Below are positions 1 to 7,945 of a stretch of 64,000 bases of DNA, one piece after another. Made by a program: the position numbers and the translations under genes. How positions within the stretch are numbered: position 1 is the first letter of the stretch; each line of letters starts with the position of its first letter. The notes under the pieces are model-generated. The model ran no database searches. It was given only the letters and a program-made list of their open reading frames with translations, and was not told where the DNA came from. This DNA comes from Escherichia coli (GTDB lineage: Bacteria > Pseudomonadota > Gammaproteobacteria > Enterobacterales > Enterobacteriaceae): NCBI RefSeq assembly GCF_016903815.1, contig NZ_CP069973.1; one strand, 5' to 3'.

Positions 1-112
1 GTGAAAAAATAGCATGTTTATCCAGTTCAACAGCTCCAACCAAGTTGAAACCGGCTCGAGTTGCCCCTAAGCTTAAACCGCCAACTCCAGAGAATAAATC
101 AACTACATTCAT
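1..112 (-). CDS. DNA (cytosine-5) methyltransferase, N-terminal 37 codons only (gene runs leftward out of the window)
   Basis: Reverse complement of 1..112 reads MNVVDLFSGVGGLSLGATRAGFNLVGAVELDKHAIFS: the FxGxGG AdoMet-binding motif I and the following E-x-D-K motif of C5-MTases. Start codon is complement of 110..112. Confidence 0.6.
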   Translation of the reverse strand, partial: MNVVDLFSGVGGLSLGATRAGFNLVGAVELDKHAIFS

Positions 113-394
113 ATTCAAATAACCATGCTAAAGATTCAACTAACGATCATGTATTCTATCATGACATCAGTCATTGTCTAAAGCCATAGTTGCTTTAAAA
201 GTTGAATCAAACTAACAATCCCTTAATGTGAGAAAGTGATTTTTCGGATGATTAATAGCCACGCTCCAGCCCCCTGAAGTTCCCAATTTGCTGCTGATGG
301 TCATTTTGAAAAACTCAAAGCAAGTGAACGACAGTTACTCTCTCCAAGCTCCGACCATCCAAACGAACAATGTAATCCTATGCAATTATATCAG

Positions 395-2500
395 CTAGCC
401 ACTTATCTTCTCTTGCCGAGTAAACATTGGCAAATAATGCTTTAATGTGTTTCTAAACACTCTGACGACCTCTGGGTCACTCCATTCGATAACACCGTCA
501 TCAACCAGATTAAGCACTGCTGCGGCGTGCTCAGAAGGTGTGGGAGCCGGTAACGAAGTATCACCACCAGTGAGCTTTCCACAGTTATTGACAGGACTCC
601 GAGGCGCGGCGATGCCGCTTTTTAAAGTCAAAGGCTCAACGACCGGAACTTTCGGCACAATGCGCCAGTCCGTCGTTCTGGTGATATGAATATGACGCGC
701 GCCGAGATGCGGCGCGTAAATGCCGACCACTCTCTCGACTTCTTCCTCGTACTCGTTAACGTCATCCGACGGGCTACGGGCAACCCTGACAGTCTGACAA
801 TCGCGCGGGACATTTGCCCCACCCTGCGCGCTGATATACAACGCAAAATCACCACTGTCTGCGGCAGCGCGAGCAGCCTCGACGCGTTCGTCAAACTCAT
901 CAGCAATACTGACGCCGCGAGGCAATTTGCGTAGTTCACGGTAAGCCCCCATTGTCGGCAGTCCAACCGTTTTAAATTGCGGGATGCGCCACGTTGACGC
1001 CCATGCAGTAACAGCCGCGGCAGTATCTTTCAGAGGTCTGCCGGTATCGTTATCGAGCTGACCATCCAGTGCATAGCCGTCGATGTTTTTTGAGATGTAT
1101 TTCGCGATATACCCCGCAGCACCGCCCCGGTTAAGGTGTTTTGCCTGAAAACGGTTTCGCGCGGCTCCTCTTTCGTCGCCATCCTCTTTGAGCGCATAGC
1201 GACGCATGATTTCGATAATCTGGTTACGCTGGCGCGGATTACAAAAAAGCATCATATGCCAGTGCGGCGTTCCGTCGTGGTGTGGCTCGACGACACGCAA
1301 ACCGTAGACCTGTAAATCATTATCCTTGAATGCCGTGCGCATCAGGCTCCAGATACGGCAGAGATAACGCTGCGCATCCTTTGGATTAAATGCCTCATCG
1401 TTCCAGCCGTGATTTAGCTGGACGGTTTTACTTTCGCCTTTTCTGACCTGACGTGTCGGGTGATACTTTGACGGCGCGGTCAGCGTGATAAACATCCCCA
1501 CATCACCCTCTGCTGCGGCGTAACGCTCAATACCGGCAATGGTGTTCATCAGCTCCATCCGGCGAATTTCAGGATTAGAAATACTGCCCATCACCTTACT
1601 GATAAGGTCGATGCGCTCGCCGGTTTCCCTGTTTTCGAGATCACACGATTTAAGAAATTCCAGATTTGCCTGGCGGCGTGCACGCACATCACGAATGGCA
1701 TGTTTACTGGCATAAGGAGAACGGTCTTTATTGACCTCCCCGACAGCAATCAGTAACGCCTCATGCCAGCGCATACGCTGGCCTTTAAGCTGATGAGTCC
1801 ACCACTCATCGTTAAACAGACGGGCAATGGCAGAATATGCCTGCCTCGTGGTCATCTGCCCTTTACGGTATTTTTTCCAGTAGAGAGGGGATATATTGAA
1901 AGCACGTGCAGCGCCAGCAACATGACCATAGAGGTGAGCCTGCGCCTCATCCGTAAACAGCGATTCTTTTTCGCCATGCGCATCCACCCAGGCATCGCTG
2001 AGTTCCTCATACATCATGAAAAGCTGCGATGAGATACGGGCAGCAAACTTTTTCAGCTCCTTGTCATTCATTCCCGGCAGGCGCGCATAGTGGTCACGCT
2101 CTGCCAGAAACAGTAACGACGCGTCGGTGTTCATTTCATGGCGCTGATTCACACGCTCAATGCGCGGCCATAAACGGCGCTGAAAAGTGGATGTGAGGAA
2201 ATAAAACCCGTGCACCGGGCTTTTATTGCGCCGGATGTAGTCATAGCGTGAAGTAAACAGCGAACGCAAAAAGTAAGGCAGGCGGTTAATCGTGGATAAA
2301 ACACCTTGCACCTGACGCATCTCGTCACGTGTAAGGGGTCTTTCGCGCCCGACAGCCTCGCGTGGCGCGCTCCATGCATAAGCACCGGTAAACGTCTTAC
2401 CGGTGCCTGCAGCAAATGCTGACGGAGGGACAAAACGCCCGGAGGCTTTAATGGCCATATGAGCCAAAAGCCTCTGAACAACGCTTGCTGAGTTGCTCAA
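395..2500 (-). CDS. P2 gpA-like replication initiation protein (701 aa)
   Basis: Large ORF at the distal end of the cox-B-A early operon; size and position as for P2 gene A. Confidence 0.7.
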   Translation of the reverse strand: MSNSASVVQRLLAHMAIKASGRFVPPSAFAAGTGKTFTGAYAWSAPREAVGRERPLTRDEMRQVQGVLSTINRLPYFLRSLFTSRYDYIRRNKSPVHGFYFLTSTFQRRLWPRIERVNQRHEMNTDASLLFLAERDHYARLPGMNDKELKKFAARISSQLFMMYEELSDAWVDAHGEKESLFTDEAQAHLYGHVAGAARAFNISPLYWKKYRKGQMTTRQAYSAIARLFNDEWWTHQLKGQRMRWHEALLIAVGEVNKDRSPYASKHAIRDVRARRQANLEFLKSCDLENRETGERIDLISKVMGSISNPEIRRMELMNTIAGIERYAAAEGDVGMFITLTAPSKYHPTRQVRKGESKTVQLNHGWNDEAFNPKDAQRYLCRIWSLMRTAFKDNDLQVYGLRVVEPHHDGTPHWHMMLFCNPRQRNQIIEIMRRYALKEDGDERGAARNRFQAKHLNRGGAAGYIAKYISKNIDGYALDGQLDNDTGRPLKDTAAAVTAWASTWRIPQFKTVGLPTMGAYRELRKLPRGVSIADEFDERVEAARAAADSGDFALYISAQGGANVPRDCQTVRVARSPSDDVNEYEEEVERVVGIYAPHLGARHIHITRTTDWRIVPKVPVVEPLTLKSGIAAPRSPVNNCGKLTGGDTSLPAPTPSEHAAAVLNLVDDGVIEWSDPEVVRVFRNTLKHYLPMFTRQEKISG

Positions 2501-2723
2501 CCTGCGCGTTTAAATCAGCAAAAGACTTTGCGCTTCCGGTCAGAATATCGTGATGCATCAGGCCGGAAACGAGCTGGCTTAATTTCGGGTAATAACCAAC
2601 CACCGCCAGCCACTCCTGACCGGCGTTTTTACCGCTTTCCGCTCTCTTTTTCTCATGGAGAATAAACTGAAAGCTGTCACTGGTAACGACATAACGTTCG
2701 CCAATTTCTATACGAATGCTCAT
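2448..2723 (-). CDS. Hypothetical phage early protein (orf83 position)
   Basis: 91-aa ORF in the early operon, overlapping the A start; no recognisable motif. Confidence 0.4.
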   Translation of the reverse strand: MSIRIEIGERYVVTSDSFQFILHEKKRAESGKNAGQEWLAVVGYYPKLSQLVSGLMHHDILTGSAKSFADLNAQVEQLSKRCSEAFGSYGH

Positions 2724-2944
2724 GCCATTCTCCGGTAATGTTTGTTTTTTGCTTCAAAGACTGACTGACAGGAAACACAACGCGTGGCTGACGGATAAGC
2801 CGCACGACGGGCAGCAGGTATTGGCACGTCACACTCTTCACAAACCAGCGCAGAAGCACCGCAATGTTTTACCCTTGCCGCGTTAATCTGGCGCTCCAGT
2901 AATTCAGCCTGCTGTTCCTGAATAAAATCCACGTTGTCCGGCAT
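2720..2944 (-). CDS. TraR/DksA-type C4 zinc-finger protein (orf82 position)
   Basis: 74 aa with CEECDVPIP...ATRCVSCQ, two CxxC pairs typical of phage TraR/DksA-like proteins. Confidence 0.55.
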   Translation of the reverse strand: MPDNVDFIQEQQAELLERQINAARVKHCGASALVCEECDVPIPAARRAAYPSATRCVSCQSVFEAKNKHYRRMA

Positions 2945-3249
2945 TACCAGCTCCTTTTGTCGTTCAGCTTCTTAAATTCATCAGCGCAATAGCTGGCGAT
3001 TTCTGTCGTTAATTTCGTCAGTTCATCCACGGAGGAGATTTGCTTATGAAATACAGCGCGTTTAACAAGTAAATTGACCACATCAGACAGGAGGTTTAAT
3101 TCGTTCTGATAAATCGCGATAACAGATTCAGTTATTTCGCGTTTTTCTTTATCAAGACCAAGTTGAATAAGAGACAAATCGCCATTTTTCATAACGGCGA
3201 TTTTTAAGGCATTGTTCAGTAATACAACTGAATGAGAACAGGACATCAA
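2944..3249 (-). CDS. Hypothetical phage early protein (orf81 position)
   Basis: 101-aa ORF, start overlaps stop of the upstream ORF. Confidence 0.4.
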
Positions 3250-3503
3250 AGCACCTCCCCGCGAGACAACCCGATATTGTGAAATTTTTCCGACTCCTGA
3301 CTGAGCAGCTCGACTATCTCCACGCGGGATAACTCCGCCTTTGTGATATGGCGAATCATGGCGTCAAGATGAGAAGAAAAGCGCGTCGCTGCGTCGGCCT
3401 GTGCTTCGGTTCTGGCCTGTTGCAGCAGTAATGCGTATTTACCGCACTGATTTTCAGAAACTGTATGCATGACTTTCTCCAGGCAAAAAGAAGCCCCGCA
3501 CAA
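3246..3503 (-). CDS. Hypothetical phage early protein (orf80 position)
   Basis: 85-aa ORF, 4-nt overlap with the next ORF. Confidence 0.4.
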
Positions 3504-3533
3504 TTAAGTGCGTTAAAAACTCTGGTTAATTAC

Positions 3534-4034
3534 TTAATGCAGATATTGCTCTGGTTTTACCGATGTCAGAATTGTCGGTGCATACTCAAACAGACTGAAT
3601 AATTCACGTAATGCACGGAATAAAGCTTCACGCCAGTAACATGATTCTTCATTAATTCGCCAGTATGGCTGGTTAAATTCTTTTTCTGTCAGTCGTGCGT
3701 GCATAAATAAAGTGCGGCGCTGACTGACAGTTAAAAAGCTAATATATGCATACTCACTTGCACCGACCTGACGGCGTTTTGAGAATGCCCCACGCAATTC
3801 ATCAATTGCACAAACCAGCCGTTCACGTTCGACGTCGTTCATTTCTTCAAAACGCATCGTTGCGTGACGTTGTTTTAACTGCGCATGAAAGCAAACTGTT
3901 AGCCGTTCGCGCTCCATCATCTGATTATAATAATCACATGTCTCCTGCCAGCGAGGAACGGCAAGATGCTTACCAATTATCCGGCGCATAGTTGCTGGCT
4001 GTTTTTCAACGAGATTGAGCGTCATCACTGTCAT
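3534..4034 (-). CDS. P2 gpB-like replication protein (166 aa)
   Basis: Exact size and position of P2 gene B between orf78-like and orf80-like. Confidence 0.6.
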   Translation of the reverse strand: MTVMTLNLVEKQPATMRRIIGKHLAVPRWQETCDYYNQMMERERLTVCFHAQLKQRHATMRFEEMNDVERERLVCAIDELRGAFSKRRQVGASEYAYISFLTVSQRRTLFMHARLTEKEFNQPYWRINEESCYWREALFRALRELFSLFEYAPTILTSVKPEQYLH

Positions 4035-4225
4035 TTCCAGCCCCTCCGGCTTTTCAGAAAGGTCAGAGCCTTCTTTAACGGACTCTGTTTTTTGGTGCGG
4101 ATAATGATTCCCTTGCGTCCCTTCCCGTGGGTGATGGTGAAGTCAATCGCCCTGGGGCTTTCGTTACGCAATAACTGAGCAATACAACGAGGCTCATTCA
4201 TACGGTTCTCCTTAACGTGGTTCAC
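4031..4225 (-). CDS. Small phage early protein (orf78 position)
   Basis: 64-aa ORF (56 aa from an internal Met) between cox and B. Confidence 0.35.
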   Translation of the reverse strand: MNHVKENRMNEPRCIAQLLRNESPRAIDFTITHGKGRKGIIIRTKKQSPLKKALTFLKSRRGWK

Positions 4226-4487
4226 CGAGACCTAACCACATCAACCAGCCGTCACGAATCTCTTTAGGACGGCTTTCATAAGCCAGTTTTAGTCCGTTAT
4301 TCCATGCCGGAATGTATACCCAATATTCACCAGCACGCCCCGATACTGACTGAGGGTCAGTAATCTCAATAACTGGTAATTTCCCTTTCTCAATCATGCC
4401 CCTTACAGCTCTTGGAGTTTTACCAATGAGTTTTGCAAACTCCTGATAAGGCACGGCATCAGTCACGCTTACAAGCTGTCTATTCAT
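4212..4487 (-). CDS. cox: Cox-like excisionase / transcriptional regulator (91 aa)
   Basis: First gene of the leftward early operon, divergent from the C repressor; 91 aa as for P2 Cox. Confidence 0.6.
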   Translation of the reverse strand: MNRQLVSVTDAVPYQEFAKLIGKTPRAVRGMIEKGKLPVIEITDPQSVSGRAGEYWVYIPAWNNGLKLAYESRPKEIRDGWLMWLGLGEPR

Positions 4488-4608
4488 CTGCTACGATTCT
4501 CCCTTAGTGCTTCTAATGGCTCCTAATGGCTAATTATTGCCTAAAAGGATAACTCCAGAAGCACAACATTTCACACCATCAGCAAGAAATTACGCAATCG
4601 GAGTAATT
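4488..4608. promoter_or_regulatory. Divergent early/repressor promoter region (lysis-lysogeny switch) with direct-repeat operator candidate
   Basis: 121-nt gap between divergent cox and C; direct repeat CTAATGGC at 4513..4520 and 4523..4530, one helical turn apart. Confidence 0.45.
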
Positions 4609-4908
4609 ATGTCAATAGACGTTTCGGAGAAGTTGAAGCTAATCCGTGAATCTGAAAGGTTAAACCGTAAAGAATTCAGTGAATTAACTGGTGTAGCCTA
4701 CAGCTCACTTTCGAGCTATGAGAGCCGGTCAAAAAACGCTGGAGTTGAAGCCATAATGAAGGTCTTACAACATCCCAGATTTACTAAATATACTTTGTGG
4801 TTCATGACTGATCAGGTAGCTCCAGAAGCCGGGCAAATTGCGCCCGCTCTCGCACACTTTGGGCAAAACGAAACAACGTCGCCCCACTCCGGTCAAAAGA
4901 CTGGTTAA
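4609..4908 (+). CDS. C: C-type immunity repressor (99 aa from internal Met; track ORF starts at 4537)
   Basis: MSIDVSEKLKLIRESERLNRKEFSELTGVAYSSLSSYE has an HTH-like segment; size and position as P2 C immediately upstream of int. Confidence 0.6.
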   Translation: MSIDVSEKLKLIRESERLNRKEFSELTGVAYSSLSSYESRSKNAGVEAIMKVLQHPRFTKYTLWFMTDQVAPEAGQIAPALAHFGQNETTSPHSGQKTG

Positions 4909-5023
4909 CAATTTATCGTGAATATATTCATCACAAGTGCCTACTATTGGTGGCTAAATTTCAGCCACCACGAAAAAAGCGATTAGTAGTAGCAAAAAAA
5001 AGTACCACTCGGAGGGTTTTCTG

Positions 5024-6037
5024 ATGGCAATCAAAAAACTCGATGATGGTCGATATGAAGTGGACATTCGCCCTACTGGACGTAACGGAAAACGCATCCG
5101 TAGGAAGTTTGATAAGAAAAGCGAAGCTGTCGCTTTCGAAAAATACACGTTGTACAACCACCACAATAAAGAATGGCTATCAAAACCAACAGACAAACGA
5201 CGTCTGTCGGAACTGACACAGATCTGGTGGGATTTAAAGGGTAAACACGAAGAGCATGGGAAATCTAATCTTGGAAAAATTGAAATCTTCACAAAAATAA
5301 CGAATGACCCATGCGCATTTCAAATCACGAAATCCCTTATCAGCCAGTACTGCGCCACCCGAAGAAGTCAGGGTATTAAACCTTCGAGTATCAATCGTGA
5401 TTTAACATGTATTAGCGGCATGTTTACAGCCCTGATTGAAGCGGAGTTATTCTTTGGTGAGCACCCTATCAGAGGGACAAAGAGGCTTAAGGAGGAAAAA
5501 CCAGAAACAGGCTATCTCACACAGGAAGAAATTGCCTTACTGCTTGCAGCACTTGACGGCGACAATAAAAAGATTGCGATTCTTTGCCTGAGTACAGGAG
5601 CACGTTGGGGAGAAGCAGCTCGTTTGAAAGCAGAAAATATCATCCATAACCGCGTCACGTTTGTTAAAACGAAAACAAACAAACCACGCACCGTCCCGAT
5701 CTCAGAGGCTGTTGCCAAAATGATCGCGGATAACAAACGAGGTTTTTTATTCCCTGATGCTGATTACCCTCGCTTCAGACGAACAATGAAAGCAATAAAA
5801 CCGGATTTGCCAACGGGGCAAGCCACACATGCACTAAGGCACAGCTTTGCCACTCATTTCATGATTAATGGAGGAAGTATTATCACGCTACAACGGATAC
5901 TAGGTCACACGCGGATTGAGCAAACTATGGTTTACGCTCATTTTGCGCCAGAGTACCTTCAGGACGCCATTTCTCTTAATCCGCTAAGAGGTGGTACTGA
6001 AGCCGAGAGTGTCCACACAGTGTCCACAGTAGAGTAA
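5024..6037 (+). CDS. int: Tyrosine recombinase, P2-type integrase (337 aa)
   Basis: C-terminal HALRHSFATHF...LGHTRIEQTMVYAHF carries the R/H-x-x-R/Y catalytic signature; 337 aa as P2 Int. Confidence 0.9.
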   Translation: MAIKKLDDGRYEVDIRPTGRNGKRIRRKFDKKSEAVAFEKYTLYNHHNKEWLSKPTDKRRLSELTQIWWDLKGKHEEHGKSNLGKIEIFTKITNDPCAFQITKSLISQYCATRRSQGIKPSSINRDLTCISGMFTALIEAELFFGEHPIRGTKRLKEEKPETGYLTQEEIALLLAALDGDNKKIAILCLSTGARWGEAARLKAENIIHNRVTFVKTKTNKPRTVPISEAVAKMIADNKRGFLFPDADYPRFRRTMKAIKPDLPTGQATHALRHSFATHFMINGGSIITLQRILGHTRIEQTMVYAHFAPEYLQDAISLNPLRGGTEAESVHTVSTVE

Positions 6038-6116
6038 CGTTTAAGGGCTTTCAGTGGTAATTTATGCCGCTCAAACCCGCATTGTACCGTTGAAAGCCCC
6101 TACTGGTGACACCCTA

Positions 6117-6143
6117 AATCTCCCTTACACGGGCTTATTTTTT
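6117..6143. other. Putative P2-type attachment site core (prophage/host junction)
   Basis: AATCTCCCTTACACGGGCTTATTTTTT is the reverse complement of the 27-bp P2 att core as I recall it (AAAAAATAAGCCCGTGTAAGGGAGATT); 80 nt past the int stop. Confidence 0.55.
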
Positions 6144-6313
6144 GTGCATAAACCATAGAGACGGATTGATCCCAGGTGACCGTCTTCCATTGACCACATC
6201 GATAGAATCTCCCTTCATAGCACGATGCCTTTCACGTAACGGCATCGTGCTCGCACAGGTTCCGGCTAAGCACAACCAGAACGCGCATGTTTGACGCTTA
6301 CCAAAAAATATTC

Positions 6314-6631
6314 TCACTCTCCACATTTGAATGTCAGACGAGCGACGCCATGTAATCCTGCACCTTCTGTCTTCAGGTCAACTATCTGCATTTTTTTGCC
6401 CTGAGTAACACAGAAATGAGCTGCATCATTTTTTACTATATTTTCTGCACCAGATATTCTGCCCCTGGCTAAAGAAGCTTCGGCTTCGGTGTAGTATTGG
6501 TTATCGAGTTTACGCTGAATATTACTTTTATATGCAAGACCAAATTTACCGATACTTGTCTCATCATTATGTACAGCACACCCAGACATAAGAAAAACAC
6601 TAATTAATGATATAGCAGCTATCTTTTTCAT
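6314..6631 (-). CDS. yegR: Small lipoprotein YegR (105 aa)
   Basis: MKKIAAISLISVFLMSGC signal peptide with lipobox; track ORF extends to 6691. Confidence 0.7.
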   Translation of the reverse strand: MKKIAAISLISVFLMSGCAVHNDETSIGKFGLAYKSNIQRKLDNQYYTEAEASLARGRISGAENIVKNDAAHFCVTQGKKMQIVDLKTEGAGLHGVARLTFKCGE

Positions 6632-7045
6632 CTTACCTTCCCCCATTAAATACCAACGACACGCTCTGGTGTTAAAATATAATAATGGCATGATTATTAT
6701 AATTGAATAGGATTATAATAAATGTTCTGTACAACATTTCCTACATAAGTAGGAATTACAAACATGAAGCCCTGCCCAGGTATCCCCATGAGGGCTTTAA
6801 TATATTTAGAATAAGATAGTGAAGATGCCACTGTTTAGTTGAATATTAGGTATATGCTCTTTTTTGAAATTTACCGGTGGCTACCGTTAACATTCACTGT
6901 CCCCATTGCAAGCTCCTGGTGGTAACCACTGAATCCTCCATACTTGAACTGATTTTTTATCCTCCGACTTTCATCCTGTTCTGACTCCACCTTTTCTTTT
7001 CTGCTCTACACTATCTACAGACCAATCATAAAGGCACATACGATC

Positions 7046-7945
7046 ATGGCAGAATTTCCCGCCAGCTTACTGATTCTTAATGGCAAAAGTACTGACAATT
7101 TACCATTGCGCGAAGCAATTATGCTGTTGCGTGAGGAAGGAATGACGATCCATGTGCGGGTCACCTGGGAGAAAGGCGATGCCGCACGATATGTAGAGGA
7201 GGCCCGGAAGTTGGGCGTCGCAACGGTGATTGCCGGTGGTGGCGATGGCACCATTAATGAAGTTTCTACGGCGTTGATTCAGTGTGAGGGGGATGACATA
7301 CCCGCGCTAGGAATTTTGCCATTAGGAACCGCCAATGATTTTGCCACCAGTGTAAGGATTCCTGAGGCACTGGATAAGGCGCTGAAACTGGCAATTGCCG
7401 GTGACGCCATTGCGATAGATATGGCGCAGGTCAACAAACAAACCTGTTTTATTAATATGGCGACAGGCGGATTTGGGACGCGTATTACCACAGAAACGCC
7501 GGAAAAATTAAAAGCCGCGCTGGGTGGCGTCTCTTACATCATTCATGGCTTAATGCGCATGGATACTCTGCAACCGGACCGTTGTGAGATCCGCGGTGAA
7601 AACTTTCACTGGCAAGGTGACGCCCTGGTCATTGGTATTGGTAACGGGCGTCAGGCCGGTGGCGGTCAGCAATTGTGCCCGAACGCGTTAATTAACGATG
7701 GCTTGCTGCAACTGCGCATTTTTACCGGCGATGAAATTCTTCCGGCTCTCGTATCAACATTAAAATCTGACGAAGATAACCCGAATATTATCGAAGGCGC
7801 TTCGTCGTGGTTTGATATACAAGCCCCACACGAAATCACTTTTAATCTTGATGGCGAACCGTTGAGCGGACAAAACTTTCATATTGAAATACTTCCGGCG
7901 GCGTTGCGTTGTCGATTACCACCAGATTGCCCATTGTTGCGTTAA
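7046..7945 (+). CDS. yegS: Lipid kinase YegS (DAGK-like)
   Basis: 299 aa with GGDGT motif of the diacylglycerol-kinase catalytic fold. Confidence 0.85.

Follow-up and report, generated by a model that had tools for sequence, protein, structure and literature searches.

A P2-like prophage of Escherichia coli carries orf82, which probably encodes a TraR-family RNA polymerase-binding factor

We show that orf82, a short gene in the early operon of an E. coli prophage, very probably encodes the Orf82 protein of phage P2, a TraR-family factor that would act by binding host RNA polymerase (RNAP) and not DNA. The gene was studied within a 64-kb stretch of E. coli DNA (hereafter the window, to which all positions refer) and is an ORF of exactly 74 codons with an ATG start (2720-2944, minus strand), preceded by a ribosome-binding site (GGAG) 7 nt 5' of the ATG. 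Its product carries two CxxC pairs, C35-E-E-C38 and C56-V-S-C59, with 17 residues between them, a spacing equal to that of C40 to C58 in F-plasmid TraR. A fifth cysteine, C28, is not a zinc ligand since it is variable (G, Y or A) among orthologues. The orf81 stop overlaps the orf82 start (TAATG), the orf82 stop overlaps the orf83 start (ATGA), and orf82 is translationally coupled with both neighbours. The features of the region are as follows, in the direction of early transcription.

4609-4908, plus strand: C-type immunity repressor, 99 aa with an HTH, divergently transcribed and unlike P2 C in sequence
4587-4615, minus strand: putative Pe-like early promoter, with TTGACA at 4615-4610, a 17-nt spacer and TAATTT at 4592-4587
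4212-4487, minus strand: cox, first gene of the early operon (Pfam Phage_Cox, 142 bits)
3534-4034, minus strand: gene B, replication gene (lagging-strand synthesis in P2), assigned from a PHROG match and its P2 position
3497-3512, minus strand: putative rho-independent terminator stem-loop between B and orf80, identical to the one annotated in P2
3246-3470, minus strand: orf80 (DUF2732), first gene past the intra-operon terminator
2944-3246, minus strand: orf81 (DUF5405), upstream neighbour, its stop overlapping the orf82 ATG
2720-2944, minus strand: orf82, TraR-family C4 zinc-finger protein of 74 aa and P2 Orf82 orthologue, assigned from the ORF and profile matches
2448-2723, minus strand: orf83 (DUF5405), downstream neighbour, its ATG overlapping the orf82 stop
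395-2458, minus strand: gene A, rolling-circle replication endonuclease and last gene of the operon, 96% identical to P2 gpA over 684 aa and lacking the final ~77 aa

An earlier note on this DNA had reported a 74-aa ORF with two CxxC pairs among phage early genes. Its coordinates and description proved exact, and the placement holds, with cox, orf78, B, orf80, orf81, orf83 and A as neighbours in P2 early-operon order (cox-orf78-B-terminator-orf80-orf81-orf82-orf83-A, as in the P2 Pe operon). An antisense ORF on the plus strand (56 aa, 2716-2886) was set aside, given the strong family matches and purifying selection of the minus-strand frame. Scanning window positions 1-7000 with Rfam at the gathering threshold returned no RNA families, so there is no evidence for an RNA element over orf82.

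The orf82 protein scored 42.1 bits against Pfam PF01258 zf-dskA_traR (gathering score 24.9) and 78.1 bits against NCBIfam TIGR02419 (C4_traR_proteo; cut-off 59.7, E 5.6e-22), entitled 'phage/conjugal plasmid C-4 type zinc finger protein, TraR family', with residues 3-64 covering model positions 1-64 of 64. PHROG 54 ('DksA-like zinc-finger protein') matched at E 6e-32. Judged by these scores, the family match is far above chance. A sequence search of the PDB placed TraR chains 5w1s_M and 6n57_M first (E ~1e-9; 1.2e-9), followed by YbiI and DksA. Equivalog models scored under their cut-offs, namely the three for DksA (TIGR02420, 20.1 vs 115.5 bits; NF008045, 17.7 vs 289; NF033459, 27.2 vs 105), the one for F-type conjugal TraR (NF010268, 42.4 vs 108 bits) and the one for YbiI (NF008243, 46 vs 96 bits). 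By profile comparison, then, the protein is a TraR-family member and not an equivalog of DksA, F-plasmid TraR or YbiI. The TraR/DksA-like zinc-finger assignment of the earlier note is right; the protein is a TraR-type member of the superfamily and not DksA proper, for which the equivalogs gave 17-27 bits vs the 105-289 needed. The RefSeq entry WP_029701699.1, on identical E. coli DNA, is named 'TraR/DksA family transcriptional regulator'; the product is not new, and public databases already name it correctly.

The defining motifs of the family point the same way. The protein is a single chain of 74 aa that lacks a DksA-type coiled-coil hairpin in the predicted model, and its C35/C38 and C56/C59 form the CxxC-(17)-CxxC arrangement expected of a C4 protein, with putative zinc binding. 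Both D3 and D6 are present and aligned with D3 and D6 of TraR, and the equivalents of TraR R48/R49 are the invariant R46 and R47. The sole departure from the family motifs lies at position 8, where F TraR has alanine in DxxDxA and the orf82 protein reads D3-N-V-D6-F-I8 (V in one allele). P2 Orf82 shares I8 and is functional, so the deviation does not exclude membership.

P2-like phages also encode Ogr, a C4 zinc-finger late activator of ~72 aa that is superficially similar to the orf82 protein in size and cysteines, and we considered whether orf82 might encode an Ogr/Delta-type protein that switches on P2 late promoters, or a zinc-finger regulator of another kind that binds DNA. However, zf-dskA_traR was the only Pfam match at E<=0.01, with no match to Ogr_Delta, and both sequence and fold matches go to TraR and DksA. 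The position is also wrong, as P2 ogr lies across att, beside D, and orf82 is the positional orthologue of P2 orf82. We therefore rejected such a regulator as extremely improbable.

Orthology with P2 is close. The protein is identical to P2 Orf82 (AAD03304.1; GenBank AF063097) at 72 of 74 residues (97.3%), the differences being A40V and T73M, and the two genes differ at 6 nt, 4 of them synonymous. They share length, location in the Pe operon (orf81 on one side, orf83 on the other), and the start and stop overlaps. Over the surrounding 5.7 kb the prophage shows 96.7% identity to P2 and is collinear with it (int, C, cox, orf78, B, putative terminator, orf80, orf81, orf82, orf83, A). It departs from P2 in its immunity region and in the truncation of its gene A. 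A40V aligns with the variable N42 of TraR, beside the first CxxC, and T73M falls past the C-terminus of F TraR; the two substitutions probably leave activity unchanged. V40 and M73 each occur singly among other IMG/VR alleles of P2-like phages, and the combination of both is absent among 79 IMG/VR orthologues. In phage genomes searched by tblastn, 75 records matched at 90-99% identity, all of them P2-type phages, P2 included. Within bacterial genomes, a 901-base query spanning orf83-orf80 matched 1602 of 5426 complete E. coli genomes (~30%), and DNA identical to the prophage region was found in E. coli 7/2 and others.

The activity of P2 Orf82 has been characterized biochemically. The purified protein displaces labelled DksA from E. 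coli RNAP, half-maximally at 0.65-1 uM, like TraR (Gopalkrishnan et al., mBio 2022, PMC9239242). Without ppGpp, its IC50 for inhibition of rrnB P1 is 250 nM; it also activates thrABC and argI ~2-4 fold and, expressed from a plasmid, complements a dksA null for growth on minimal medium (PMC9239242). The authors suggest that the missing A8 may account for its ~5-fold lower potency relative to TraR, and they place P2 orf82 under Pe together with the replication genes (PMC9239242). According to Liu et al. 1993, as cited in PMC9239242, overexpression of P2 Orf82 halts cell growth. The earlier note had proposed RNAP binding and transcriptional reprogramming, with rRNA-promoter reporters and RNAP-binding assays as the means of checking; the former has been shown experimentally with the P2 protein (97% identical), and the latter are published for it, with effects and binding both present (PMC9239242). 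By analogy, the orf82 allele studied here would bind the RNAP secondary channel, inhibit rrnB P1 and activate amino-acid promoters without ppGpp.

Conservation among relatives was examined at two depths. In a 12-homologue alignment (the orf82 protein, P2, 186, EtG, 613R3, VP882 gp61, D3 orf77, a P22-like Salmonella phage, a Mannheimia phage, a Xanthomonas jumbo phage, lambda Orf73 and F TraR), D6, C35, C38, R46, R47, C56 and C59 were invariant. Among close orthologues (79, out of 80 IMG/VR loci), D3, D6, the four cysteines and the arginine pair showed no variation. The ORF was intact at 74 aa in 79/79, and 58 distinct orf82 alleles gave a pN/pS of 0.25, which points to purifying selection. The orf80-orf81-orf82-orf83-A block was kept in every one of the 80 related loci that no contig end interrupts. 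These results bear on whether orf82 could be a chance ORF or a decaying pseudogene in a defective prophage, a reading to which the adjacent gene A, truncated and flagged by PGAP as a pseudogene, lends some credence. We rejected it as having next to no probability, since the gene is intact with its ribosome-binding site and coupled neighbours, scores over the cut-offs of the family HMMs and carries the selection signature seen across its relatives.

The predicted structure is likewise consistent with a TraR-family protein. An AF2 model built from the 12-sequence alignment (pLDDT 75.7) has helices at 3-28, 44-49 and 57-73, and the published TraR layout comprises an N-helix (2-27), a globular part (28-57) and a C-helix (58-73) (PMC6970531), which the predicted helices match. 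When the model was compared with the PDB using Foldseek, RNAP-bound TraR (6n57_M) came first (E 3e-4, TM 0.51-0.53, rmsd 7 A), followed by DksA, DksA2 and YbiI. This structural match is of moderate quality, which is expected because the protein is elongated, with two helices, and was modelled from a 12-sequence alignment.

On these grounds we propose how Orf82 may act. In cryo-EM structures of TraR-RNAP, the N-helix passes through the secondary channel to the active site, the globular domain rests against the beta' rim helices and beta'Si3, and the C-helix rotates the beta lobe/Si1 (PMC6970531); R48/R49 of TraR take part in the beta' rim helix and beta'Si3 contacts (PMC9239242). Applied to Orf82 from its conserved residues and predicted fold, this mechanism would have the N-terminal helix (~3-28) enter the secondary channel, bringing D3 and D6 close to the catalytic centre. 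The globular Zn-ribbon (C35, C38, C56, C59; R46, R47) would sit on the beta' rim helices and touch beta'Si3, and the C-terminal helix (~57-73) would contact the beta lobe/Si1. Together, these contacts would alter RNAP conformation such that promoters with short-lived open complexes (rRNA, ribosomal-protein) are inhibited and some amino-acid biosynthesis promoters activated, with no ppGpp needed. Presumably transcribed from Pe with B and A on infection or prophage derepression, orf82 would then slow host ribosome synthesis and growth, a likely role that would free RNAP and resources for the phage. The homologue in phage 186 is annotated 'not essential'.

The Pe-like promoter has the position and geometry of P2 Pe, with its -35 element over the C start codon. 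It was read by eye against the P2 annotation; the automatic promoter scan did not report it because its -10 hexamer matches at 3/6 positions only. By position, and with a weak -10, TTGACA-17-TAATTT is probably the counterpart of Pe. In the automatic scan, no sigma-70-like site appeared immediately 5' of orf82, the lone same-strand site lying inside B (3951-3924). Between ~4400 and ~4700, the C repressor, the operators and the 5' end of cox have diverged from P2, with flanks ~97% identical, and the prophage is therefore heteroimmune to P2. Tandem 10-bp repeats (GCTTCTAATG/GCTCCTAATG) occupy 4509-4528, where P2 has Pc and control sites.

The earlier note had suggested that the protein could affect host physiology in the lysogen if expressed. 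Its transcriptional part is borne out by P2 Orf82; its lysogenic part is weak, as Pe is shut by C in P2 lysogens. The idea that constitutive or leaky expression lets Orf82 act in an established lysogen draws on the observation that expressed TraR homologues slow host growth (PMC9239242; bioRxiv 10.64898/2026.07.27.740977, a preprint on VP882), and on the presence of the region in those 1602 E. coli genomes, such that even weak expression would be widespread. However, orf82 lies 1.6 kb inside the Pe operon, past cox, B and the terminator-like hairpin, with no nearer sigma-70-like promoter on its strand save the site inside B, and the prophage too has a C-type repressor, divergent from cox, and a Pe-like promoter. 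Growth inhibition on overexpression further speaks against tolerated constitutive expression. Because orf82 sits behind a repressor-controlled early promoter, it is unlikely to affect the stable lysogen, and we regard this alternative as very improbable; Orf82 action is instead expected during lytic growth or derepression. P2 is not known to be SOS-inducible, and the satellite P4 derepresses P2.

A second question is whether Orf82 works alone. In phage VP882, TraR, which is countered by QtiQ, pairs with QisA (gp60), encoded upstream, to cause strong growth arrest, and the QisA-TraR_VP882 complex has been reported (bioRxiv 10.64898/2026.07.27.740977). Orf82 might similarly work only or mainly in complex with a small early neighbour (Orf80, Orf81 or Orf83). 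Its translational coupling to orf81 and orf83, the conservation of the orf80-to-A block in the uninterrupted loci among those 80, and the DUF2732 gene directly 5' of the TraR homologue in 186, EtG and 613R3 are all compatible with a partner. Yet VP882 gp60, compared by BLASTP with all nine early proteins of the prophage, gave no significant match (best E 0.17 over 19 aa), and no QisA homologue was thus detected in the prophage. Tight coupling is moreover general to all genes of the operon, the TraR gene of 613R3 is present without DUF5405 neighbours, and purified P2 Orf82 needs no other phage protein to bind RNAP and act on promoters (PMC9239242). We thus consider such dependence on a partner unlikely. 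A more elaborate version, in which a complex of Orf82 with Orf80, Orf81 or Orf83 would link RNAP reprogramming to the start of gpA rolling-circle replication (or, in a weaker variant, the operon would be a domesticated growth-arrest module in the truncated-A lineage), is quite unlikely.

The arrangement of the neighbours varies among relatives. In 186-type Peduoviridae, the DUF2732 (Orf80-like) gene lies immediately 5' of the TraR homologue and overlaps it (phage 186, L004, 2268-2728; also L009 and L010, 1274-1722), and in P2-type phages orf81 is inserted between the two. In 613R3, the TraR gene lies immediately 5' of gene A, without a DUF5405 gene. The paralogues orf81 and orf83 (Pfam DUF5405) are labelled 'replication initiation protein' in PHROGs, a label whose experimental basis is not evident.

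The gene at the end of the operon is altered. Similarity of gene A to the gpA of P2 and 720R8 is lost at ~462, and the reading frame ends ~77 aa early with an unrelated tail of ~20 aa; PGAP lists it in the identical E. coli 7/2 as 'incomplete; missing C-terminus'. The P2 ori nick site maps to ~600 and is retained. As gene A is truncated, the prophage may be replication-defective and its early operon rarely used. A cargo block adjoins the truncated gene, where P2 has its tin/old hotspot (1-112, minus strand, continuing leftwards; L002, 3198-6713). Its genes encode a DNA cytosine methyltransferase (first), an O-methyltransferase and an ATP-binding protein, and the block may serve in defence or modification. 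Of 5426 complete E. coli genomes, only 45 share the exact A/cargo junction, and ~1600 have the neighbouring A sequence. On the other side, int lies at 5024-6037, and near 6143 the resemblance to the P2 attP core stops. In the region 6100-7945 the prophage end adjoins yegR and yegS (lipid kinase, 7046-7945), and what remains of the 64-kb window belongs to the E. coli chromosome (gat operon side).

Taken on its own, the orf82 finding is correct but ordinary and matters little beyond correct annotation: this is an ORF of a textbook phage, whose biochemical activity was published in 2022. The locus does not sharpen the questions that Orf82 raises for P2 biology (burst size, timing, replication coupling, partners, prophage expression).

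Set against known systems, Orf82 shares with E. coli DksA the C4 superfamily and the RNAP secondary-channel site, and P2 Orf82 can replace DksA in the null mutant. DksA differs in its 151 aa, its long coiled-coil hairpin and its need of ppGpp for full activity, compared with the 74 aa of Orf82. Lambda Orf73, a TraR-family protein of 73 aa encoded in the exo-xis region, inhibits rRNA and r-protein promoters, and it makes the host grow more slowly and increases the burst size (PMC9239242). It aligns with the orf82 protein at the conserved D6, C4 and RR positions, but is only 30% identical overall and gives little activation of thrABC and argI, compared with 2-4 fold for P2 Orf82 (PMC9239242); the contexts also differ, orf82 being in a replication operon. 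TraR of VP882 (gp61), 36% identical to the orf82 protein, is likewise repressor-controlled in a temperate phage, and its RNAP-binding motif is needed for growth arrest (bioRxiv 10.64898/2026.07.27.740977).

TraR-family genes also occur elsewhere in phage genomes. The Mannheimia P2-like phage 535AP1 (L008, 1411-1632) has one in the late region, between the lysis genes and the tail-completion gene R, with its own annotated promoter and terminator, and a Salmonella P22-like phage (L007, 1441-1662) has one in the ea region near int.

The closest comparison among well-described systems is with F-plasmid TraR (PDB 5W1S chain M; 6N57/6N58 chain M), which is 39% identical to the orf82 protein and shares with it the N-helix, the C4 Zn globular domain, the C-helix, D3, D6, the R48/R49 equivalents, and the PIP and KHY motifs. 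The two differ in context, orf82 belonging to a phage early operon and F TraR to a conjugative transfer operon, and in potency at rrnB P1, where F TraR has an IC50 of ~50 nM vs the 250 nM of P2 Orf82 (PMC9239242). Like F TraR, P2 Orf82 uses the same site on RNAP and the same promoters, and needs no ppGpp (PMC9239242).
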